DNA from: Escherichia coli
GTDB taxonomy: Bacteria > Pseudomonadota > Gammaproteobacteria > Enterobacterales > Enterobacteriaceae
NCBI RefSeq assembly: GCF_017348835.2
Contig: NZ_CP071375.1
DNA: 64,000 bases
Strand: one strand, 5' to 3'
The notes under the pieces are model-generated. The model did no database searches, had not been told where the DNA came from, and saw only the letters and a list, made by a program, of their open reading frames with translations. The translations under genes and the position numbers were made by a program. Shown piece by piece: positions 33,601-35,884 of this stretch (position 1 is the first letter of the stretch; every line of letters starts with the position of its first letter).

Positions 33601-34885
33601 CGAACTGAAACTGATCGACGAATTCGGTCGTACCAAAGAAAGCTACAAAGTACCTTACGGTGCGGTACTGGCAAAAGGCGATGGCGAACAGGTTGCTGGC
33701 GGCGAAACCGTTGCAAACTGGGACCCGCACACCATGCCGGTTATCACCGAAGTAAGCGGTTTTGTACGCTTTACTGACATGATCGACGGCCAGACCATTA
33801 CTCGTCAGACCGACGAACTGACCGGTCTGTCTTCGCTGGTGGTTCTGGATTCCGCAGAACGTACCGCAGGTGGTAAAGATCTGCGTCCGGCACTGAAAAT
33901 CGTTGATGCTCAGGGTAACGACGTTCTGATCCCAGGTACCGATATGCCTGCGCAGTACTTCCTGCCGGGTAAAGCGATTGTTCAGCTGGAAGATGGCGTA
34001 CAGATCAGCTCTGGTGACACCCTGGCGCGTATTCCGCAGGAATCCGGCGGTACCAAGGACATCACCGGTGGTCTGCCGCGCGTTGCGGACCTGTTCGAAG
34101 CACGTCGTCCGAAAGAGCCGGCAATCCTGGCTGAAATCAGCGGTATCGTTTCCTTCGGTAAAGAAACCAAAGGTAAACGTCGTCTGGTTATCACCCCGGT
34201 AGACGGTAGCGATCCGTACGAAGAGATGATTCCGAAATGGCGTCAGCTCAACGTGTTCGAAGGTGAACGTGTAGAACGTGGTGACGTAATTTCCGACGGT
34301 CCGGAAGCGCCGCACGACATTCTGCGTCTGCGTGGTGTTCATGCTGTGACTCGTTACATCGTTAACGAAGTACAGGACGTATACCGTCTGCAGGGCGTTA
34401 AGATTAACGATAAACACATCGAAGTTATCGTTCGTCAGATGCTGCGTAAAGCTACCATCGTTAACGCGGGCAGCTCCGACTTCCTGGAAGGCGAACAGGT
34501 TGAATACTCTCGCGTCAAGATCGCAAACCGCGAACTGGAAGCGAACGGCAAAGTGGGTGCAACTTACTCCCGCGATCTGCTGGGTATCACCAAAGCGTCT
34601 CTGGCAACCGAGTCCTTCATCTCCGCGGCATCGTTCCAGGAGACCACTCGCGTGCTGACCGAAGCAGCCGTTGCGGGCAAACGCGACGAACTGCGCGGCC
34701 TGAAAGAGAACGTTATCGTGGGTCGTCTGATCCCGGCAGGTACCGGTTACGCGTACCACCAGGATCGTATGCGTCGCCGTGCTGCGGGTGAAGCTCCGGC
34801 TGCACCGCAGGTGACTGCAGAAGACGCATCTGCCAGCCTGGCAGAACTGCTGAACGCAGGTCTGGGCGGTTCTGATAACGAGTAA
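30662..34885 (+). CDS. rpoC: RNA polymerase beta' subunit (1407 aa)
   Basis: GTG start, [48 protein letters not shown]; catalytic NADFDGD motif. Confidence 0.98.
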
Positions 34886-34906: not shown

Positions 34907-34933
34907 AAAAACCCGCTTCGGCGGGTTTTTTTA
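34907..34933 (+). terminator. rho-independent terminator of the rpoBC operon
   Basis: AAAAACCCGC-TTCG-GCGGGTTTTTTTAT. Confidence 0.9.
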
Positions 34934-35097
34934 TGGGGGGAGTTTAGGGAAAGAGCATTTGTCAGAATATTTAAGGAATTTCTGAATACTCATAATCAAT
35001 GTAGAGATGACTAATATCCTGAAACTGACTGAACTAATTGAGTCAAACTCGGCAAGGATTCGATACTATTCCTGTGTAACTTTCTTAAGGAACGAGA

Positions 35098-35627
35098 ATG
35101 AAACAGGAAGTGGAAAAGTGGCGACCTTTTGGACATCCGGATGGTGATATTCGTGATTTATCATTTCTTGATGCTCATCAGGCTGTCTACGTTCAGCATC
35201 ATGAGGGCTAGAGTATCGCTTTTGGGTTACCTACTCTCTTCACTGCTTCACAAAAGATTATGAACATCAGACGAACGAAGAAAAACAATCGTTAATGTAC
35301 CACGCGCCTAAAGAATCTCGTCCCTTCTGCCAGCACCGTTATAACTTAGCGCGCACACACTTAAAAAGAACCATTTTGGCGCTGCCAGAAAGCAATGTTA
35401 TTCATGCCGGGTATGGTAGCTATGCCGTGATTGAGGTGGACTTAGACGGAGGAGACAAGGCATTTTACTTTGTTGCGTTCAGGGCTTTCAGGGAAAAGAA
35501 AAAACTCCGTTTGCATGTAACTAGCGCTTACCCCATTTCTGAAAAACAGAAAGGTAAATCAGTGAAATTTTTCACCATTGCCTACAATTTATTGAGAAAT
35601 AAGCAGCTTCCTCAGCCCTCAAAATAA
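35098..35627 (+). pseudogene. yjaZ: htrC/yjaZ-like gene disrupted by a frameshift (N-terminal 37 codons 35098-35211; remainder open in another frame 35205-35627)
   Basis: ATG at 35098 with Shine-Dalgarno AAGGA stops at TAG 35209-35211 after 37 codons; a 140-codon frame continues to 35627 from 35205 with no start codon until 35295. Confidence 0.65.
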
Positions 35628-35628
35628 C

Positions 35629-35653
35629 AAAACCCACCTTAAGGTGGGTTTCG
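35629..35653 (+). terminator. putative terminator hairpin after yjaZ
   Basis: Palindrome CCCACCTT/AAGGTGGG followed by a short T-run. Confidence 0.45.
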
Positions 35654-35884
35654 CCAGAGATAATTCTCTGGTATTCAGAACGCCATTACCGGACTTTGCC
35701 TTGACCTTGCGAGAATCGCAGGTTGCGGGATGTCTGAATTTCTTCAGTCTGCTGCATCCTGGAAGATGAGAACATGTGTTCTTATTTTCGTCTCTATCAT
35801 AGTTGAGTATTTACTCTCTTACAATCAGATCTCTTTCATTGCTCAACAGGCGATGGCTTCAGACTTTGCATTACGGAATTTTTA

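Follow-up and report, generated by a model that had tools for sequence, protein, structure and literature searches.

A single 10-nucleotide deletion as the best explanation for a broken yjaZ gene downstream of rpoC in Escherichia coli

The yjaZ gene (b3989, synonym htrC) of Escherichia coli, which in its intact form encodes a protein of 179 amino acids (aa), lies in two pieces in the window considered here, the whole analysed stretch of 64,000 nucleotides (nt) from contig NZ_CP071375.1 of RefSeq assembly GCF_017348835.2. The best explanation, which is very probably correct, is that the locus was inactivated by a single 10-nt deletion and is a loss-of-function pseudogene. The intact protein belongs to NCBIfam family NF007263, and Pfam PF27200 was assigned to it in precomputed annotations.

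A single deletion separates the two pieces of yjaZ

The listing of open reading frames (ORFs) gave an ATG at 35098-35100 followed by 37 codons (MKQEVEKWRPFGHPDGDIRDLSFLDAHQAVYVQHHEG) and by a TAG at 35209-35211. In the -1 frame, a TGA at 35202-35204 shuts the upstream side, and from 35205 the frame runs open as far as the TAA at 35625-35627, over 140 codons that read GLEYRFWVTYSLHCF...; a search from 35205 onwards found no ATG, GTG or TTG in this frame upstream of the ATG at 35295. Both fragments jointly match the 540-nt intact yjaZ of E. coli B and K-12 end to end and, judged from the sequence, they are one yjaZ gene and not chance ORFs. Alignment with the intact genes of E. coli B C2566 and K-12 MG1655 revealed a single gap of exactly 10 nt, which was the sole frame-breaking difference; the others from K-12 were five third-position synonymous substitutions, at gene positions 285, 309, 369, 444 and 501. 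The length of the gap is not a multiple of three and it is followed by a premature stop, the TAG right after codon 37, as is characteristic of a frameshift pseudogene.

Neither microhomology nor direct repeats were found at the edges of the deletion, where the bases on either side do not match those at the ends of the missing stretch. The lost segment AAAGAGCCTT lies in a weak quasi-palindrome, and a hairpin- or repeat-mediated deletion was considered and rejected on the lack of microhomology and on the folding of the intact allele. No mechanism appears evident, because shuffled sequences fold as well as the intact-allele DNA around the site (z = 0.29).

An initial annotation, made from the letters and the ORF listing, had described most of this structure. 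Its ATG at 35098 with a Shine-Dalgarno sequence, its 37 codons ending in the TAG at 35209 and its 140 codons open from 35205 to 35627 with a first start at 35295 all stood up to direct reading, translation and the ORF listing. The alignment with K-12 yjaZ/htrC that it had proposed was performed and identified the indel as the loss of AAAGAGCCTT, which agrees with its view of one gene, not two, broken by a small indel downstream of rpoC and leaving a truncated product. Its estimate of about 7 nt was too small, and the case that it had named as a possible refutation, reference strains with the same two-frame structure, did not arise, as K-12 and E. coli B are single-frame. The coordinates are collected in Table 1.

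Table 1. Features of the yjaZ locus in the window and annotated pseudogenes in other strains
Feature	Position	Strand	Description
yjaZ Shine-Dalgarno	35087..35091	+	AAGGA, 6 nt ahead of the ATG at 35098; direct sequence reading
yjaZ 5' fragment	35098..35211	+	codons 1-37, same as in K-12, then premature TAG
Deletion junction	35208..35209	+	AAAGAGCCTT (gene positions 112-121) lost between these bases; placement unique; from alignments
yjaZ 3' part	35205..35627	+	-1 frame, about codons 41-179 of the intact gene, otherwise undamaged
Residual ORF, 110 aa	35295..35627	+	corresponds to YjaZ residues 70-179
rpoC intrinsic terminator hairpin	34907..34930	+	AAAAACCCGC-TTCG-GCGGGTTTTT; upstream edge of the yjaZ locus; pattern reported on the opposite strand of the palindrome
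Bidirectional terminator hairpin	35630..35651	.	AAACCCACC-TTAA-GGTGGGTTT; common to yjaZ and sroH
sroH small RNA gene	35629..35789	-	Rfam RF00372, 190.6 bits against a gathering score of 80; model positions 1-161, full length
Low-GC yjaZ-sroH islet	34938..35872	.	GC content 0.40-0.45 against 0.51-0.61 in the flanks; in about 69% of complete genomes
Annotated yjaZ pseudogenes			PE164 LZG51_RS22995; F2_81 CPH39_RS22990; A30 AOY83_RS22340; NCBI annotation pipeline (PGAP)

Predicted consequence for the protein

The deletion shifts reading to the -1 frame after codon 37 and straight into the TAG, and the normal start would then yield only a 37-residue peptide. The remaining 140 codons, intact and out of frame, would be translatable only from the internal ATG at 35295, which appears to have a poor ribosome-binding site: the 20 nt upstream of it are ACGAAGAAAAACAATCGTTA, and no well-spaced Shine-Dalgarno sequence was found among them. 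A product started there would miss the N-terminal 69 residues, which include 13 of the 30 positions that are invariant in the family. These positions were determined in an alignment of E. coli YjaZ with 25 members from Enterobacteriaceae, Aeromonas, Oceanimonas, Thiolinea and cyanobacteria, and the 13 columns placed before residue 70 are E4, W8, D20, L21, S22, Y43, F45, Y49, H52, C53, F54, K56 and L69. The 37-aa peptide ends ahead of the block from Y43 to K56, and the 110-aa ORF starts beyond it.

The NCBIfam model NF007263, an equivalog profile of 179 positions with a whole-protein cut-off of 324 bits, gave 430.1 bits for the intact E. coli B protein (positions 1-179) and 250.7 bits, below the cut-off, for the 110-aa ORF, which matched profile positions 70-179 only. 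The DNA of the locus is orthologous to yjaZ, and by these scores no product that it is predicted to encode qualifies as a YjaZ protein. Moreover, the AlphaFold2 model of intact YjaZ (predicted local distance difference test, pLDDT, 87.9; predicted template modelling score, pTM, 0.84) placed the strands at residues 27-33 and 41-49 in one confidently scored unit. The missing invariant residues, the score below the cut-off, the lack of a good Shine-Dalgarno sequence and the single-unit model together make loss of function the best inference; with conserved parts of the family missing and a poor start context at 35295, the gene is most likely inactive here.

Carriers and history of the deletion

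The deletion was sought in a panel of 5,426 complete E. coli genomes, by megablast with positions 35050-35680 (631 nt) and with a 48-nt query centred on the junction. The 48-nt junction sequence was present in exactly three of these genomes, PE164 (pig, China), F2_81 (pig, Australia) and A30 (baboon), and the intact sequence at the deletion site matched 3,418. In all three carriers the NCBI pipeline marks yjaZ as a pseudogene, "frameshifted". The lesion is therefore not new, having been annotated in three sequenced strains, and it is an ordinary lineage-specific frameshift pseudogene. The window differed from F2_81 by no single-nucleotide polymorphism and from PE164 by one over 6.6 kb, with 99.9% identity over 25 kb, and therefore belongs to that lineage. 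The exact 37-aa peptide was recorded on at least 105 public contigs (162 index blocks), and each of the 10 peptide-bearing contigs that were examined (L018-L027, from Logan assemblies of public runs and NCBI drafts) carried the identical deletion.

Among the contigs examined, the deletion was found on at least three haplotype backgrounds. The window-type haplotype consists of the five synonymous changes, A30 and contig L026 add 96T>C, and contig L019 presents nine other differences from E. coli B. In the 6.6-kb comparison, A30 carried the alleles specific to the window lineage through rpoC and yjaZ and diverged sharply from about 35661 into thiH, and this shared upstream haplotype with a diverged thiH side indicates recombination next to an inherited allele. 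The allele would thus stem from a single event or a small number of events, after which inheritance and recombination would have carried it through a minor E. coli lineage.

It is unlikely that the site is instead a recurrent hot-spot at which the deletion arose independently in several lineages, an alternative that concerns the history of the lesion and not its nature. Although the same deletion stands on clearly different haplotypes (L019, and A30 and L026 with 96T>C), and the ends of older deletions, which removed yjaZ from HH45- and UTI89-type genomes, lie just 3-4 nt from the site (about gene position 115), no flanking direct repeats, microhomology or significant hairpin was found that would make the site prone to slippage. 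Moreover, the rpoC-yjaZ upstream haplotype is common to A30 and the window lineage, with divergence only downstream, as recombination predicts, and the allele is very rare (3/5,426 genomes).

A separate observation concerns the end-points of three deletions, which cluster inside yjaZ, about 5 nt or less from one another (gene positions 111-116; window 35208/35209). The 10-nt deletion starts at position 112, the yjaZ remnant of HH45 ends at position 115 (GAGGGCAAAG followed by TCTT; sequence L005, about 2546), and that of UTI89 (L032) ends at GAGGGCAA. This clustering may be a coincidence, with a chance of roughly 2% judged post hoc, or a fragile site, and no repeat or significant hairpin at the site accounts for it.

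Alternatives to loss of function

Several observations weigh against an inactive yjaZ. In its amino-acid sequence the residual 110-aa ORF is perfectly conserved, and low-level translation of it could in principle occur. Apart from the gap, the gene departs from K-12 only at five synonymous sites, with no sign of decay after inactivation; this absence fits a young pseudogene and does not alone establish that function was lost. If the ribosome slipped by -1 at GGC-TAG, a rare spontaneous event, the resulting protein would be nearly full-length and short of only K38, E39 and P40. Finally, YjaZ is uncharacterised, so the label "inactive" cannot be linked to a phenotype.

Pursued further, the first of these points leads to a split gene that keeps its function, in which the 110-aa ORF (35295-35627) would be expressed with or without the 37-aa peptide, for example as a free RelE/ParE-like domain. 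The YjaZ model matched RelE/ParE-type toxins best in fold, but weakly; given the sub-cut-off score and the poor start described above, such a split gene is very improbable.

Even less probable is programmed -1 ribosomal frameshifting at the overlap 35205-35208, which would produce a near-full-length, functional YjaZ. The geometry is that of a -1 shift, and a slip after GGC (Gly37) onto CTA would read HHEG-LEYRFW, with the loss of only the three residues named above. However, no slippery heptamer of the X XXY YYZ type is present in CATGAGGGCTAGAG (site CAT GAG GGC TAG), there is no homopolymer run for transcriptional slippage, and shuffled sequences fold as well as the DNA around the site in the intact E. 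coli B allele, with the z value given above. The two-frame state is moreover rare and derived, occurring in three genomes of the panel as against 3,418 that are single-frame at the site, and is not conserved. Programmed frameshifting was accordingly rejected for want of a slippery site, of conservation and of structure in the intact-allele DNA fold.

The caveat of the initial annotation, a sequencing or assembly error in a strain with an intact yjaZ, is hardly credible and was set aside, because a 10-nt loss in non-repetitive sequence, itself atypical of platform errors, recurs so widely: the check for sharing among related isolates found the identical junction in three complete genomes sequenced independently in different laboratories and continents and in 10/10 further contigs, on several haplotype backgrounds, even if some other public yjaZ lesions may be errors (L013, whose assembly has rpoC and thiH in fragments too, and L014, a +1 A in an A-run).

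Loss of yjaZ across E. coli

Inactivation by the 10-nt deletion is one of many yjaZ losses in the species. The yjaZ region was matched by megablast in 3,737 of the 5,426 complete genomes, leaving 1,689 (about 31%) without a match, and nearly all of the matches covered 641 nt for the 631-nt query. The gene lies in a low-GC islet whose boundaries emerged when the UTI89 intergenic region was compared with the window by BLAST. In UTI89-type genomes, about 23 bp replace the islet, giving a compact intergenic region without yjaZ. HH45, where the interval is likewise compact and yjaZ missing, presents a different filler and a 49-nt yjaZ remnant (gene positions 67-115; L005 2456-2550), which suggests that the yjaZ-less state came by deletion.

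Other genomes retain a damaged gene. In O157:H7 (ECP17-46, L006 1549-1992), a 71-nt deletion of gene positions 401-471 frameshifts the C-terminus and yields a 147-aa "protein HtrC" annotated as a normal coding sequence, which loses the invariant residues K138, R141, H143, S146, A147 and F161; the identity band of this allele takes in about 310 complete genomes. O111:H8 SF4-1, E2863 and GPEC1189 share the loss of 2 nt (positions 267-268) in the dinucleotide-repeat tract GCGCGCACACAC. A stop at W46 arose twice, as TGG>TAG in four complete genomes and separately as TGG>TGA in public assemblies; for the TGA allele no match was found among complete RefSeq genomes. Further lesions in public assemblies comprised Q67*, a 5-nt deletion at 191-195, a +1 A at 164, a -1 C at 199 and an insertion of an IS3-family insertion sequence (IS). 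The exact 110-aa C-terminal ORF stands as a separate "protein" on at least 861 contigs, and it was deposited separately so often because many independent yjaZ lesions exist.

Assembly L013 (GCA_046506925.1) is error-ridden, with rpoC and thiH also split into many short ORFs, and some single-base yjaZ frameshifts, such as those in L014 and L015, may likewise be artefacts. The product name was tried as a proxy for pseudogenes and discarded, as the "stationary phase growth adaptation protein" of H28 is an intact 179-aa variant.

The phenotypic cost of losing yjaZ is probably small, because it is a low-GC accessory gene that is unmatched in about 31% of genomes, independently broken in many of the rest and routinely replaced by kan. 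In fact, a delta-yjaZ::kan cassette conferring kanamycin resistance serves as a linked marker for moving rpoC alleles (PMC4666387).

Neighbouring genes

The rpoC gene ends at 34885 in the ORF listing. The order of rpoC terminator, yjaZ, sroH and thiH is the same as in K-12, which places the broken gene at the orthologous position. The sroH gene begins 2 nt past the yjaZ stop, is convergent with yjaZ and is untouched by the deletion; positions 137-161 of its model also match the terminator hairpin at 35630-35651 on the + strand. A literature search for sroH returned nothing on the small RNA and only unrelated matches to "self-rated oral health". The lesion is not expected to be polar: yjaZ is monocistronic, has a terminator on either side and runs convergently to sroH and thiH.

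Within sroH, on the minus strand, a hairpin CCAGAG-ATAATT-CTCTGG was noted at 35654-35671, whose 6-nt loop is reverse-complemented (AATTAT) in E. coli B, O157:H7, O111:H8 SF4-1 and A30. Both loop states occur among carriers of the 10-nt deletion, and contig L024 equals the window over the 530-nt gene yet has the other loop. From these sequences, the loop seems to have inverted repeatedly within a perfect inverted repeat, with the stem preserved. In ET650 (L036, 363-1060), an IS1 separates rpoC from an intact yjaZ and lies in the promoter region of the latter, a gene that it may silence or drive.

Significance

The importance of the lesion is low, as it affects an uncharacterised protein that about one third of complete E. 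coli genomes lack and affects no neighbouring gene. Its practical use is as a lineage marker for strains of the F2_81/PE164/A30 type. Moreover, the 37-aa and 110-aa "proteins" that databases hold from the yjaZ locus are fragments of one broken gene, and those who study the YjaZ family might take an interest in how repeatedly and independently E. coli has lost yjaZ.

Raina and Georgopoulos reportedly described htrC in 1990 as a heat-shock gene whose product is required for growth at high temperature. The initial annotation spoke of a stationary-phase or heat-shock protein, which describes the name only: a 2024 review of the y-ome lists yjaZ (htrC) as uncharacterised and its initial functional designation as retracted (PMC11551758).

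Members of the family are about 50% identical from E. coli to cyanobacteria and occur as a stand-alone gene in unrelated contexts, such as a cyanobacterial chromosome, Aeromonas, where the gene lies next to tail genes of a P2-like prophage, and a Raoultella contig whose YjaZ-family protein is labelled by NCBI as plasmid-borne. A doubtful further idea is that YjaZ is a mobile stand-alone gene, costly, toxic or phage-related, that E. coli sheds under selection rather than by drift. If true, the 10-nt deletion would be one of many adaptive knock-outs, together with the complete loss in about 31% of genomes, the O157:H7 truncation, the two W46 stops and the IS insertions, and the deletion end-points clustered at positions 111-116 would mark a fragile site.

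Comparison with known alleles

Compared with yjaZ of K-12 MG1655, the gene of the window occupies the same position, its DNA is identical save for the 10-nt gap and the five synonymous changes, and the residues of codons 1-37 and 70-179 are identical. The other broken alleles (O157:H7, the 2-nt loss, W46*, Q67* and the IS3-family insertion) independently inactivate the same non-essential gene and differ from the 10-nt deletion in position and mechanism. Among the carriers, A30 shares the junction but differs by 96T>C in yjaZ, by the alternative hairpin loop at 35660-35665 and by another haplotype of the thi operon, whereas PE164 and F2_81 present the identical junction and 100% identity to the window over the 631 nt.
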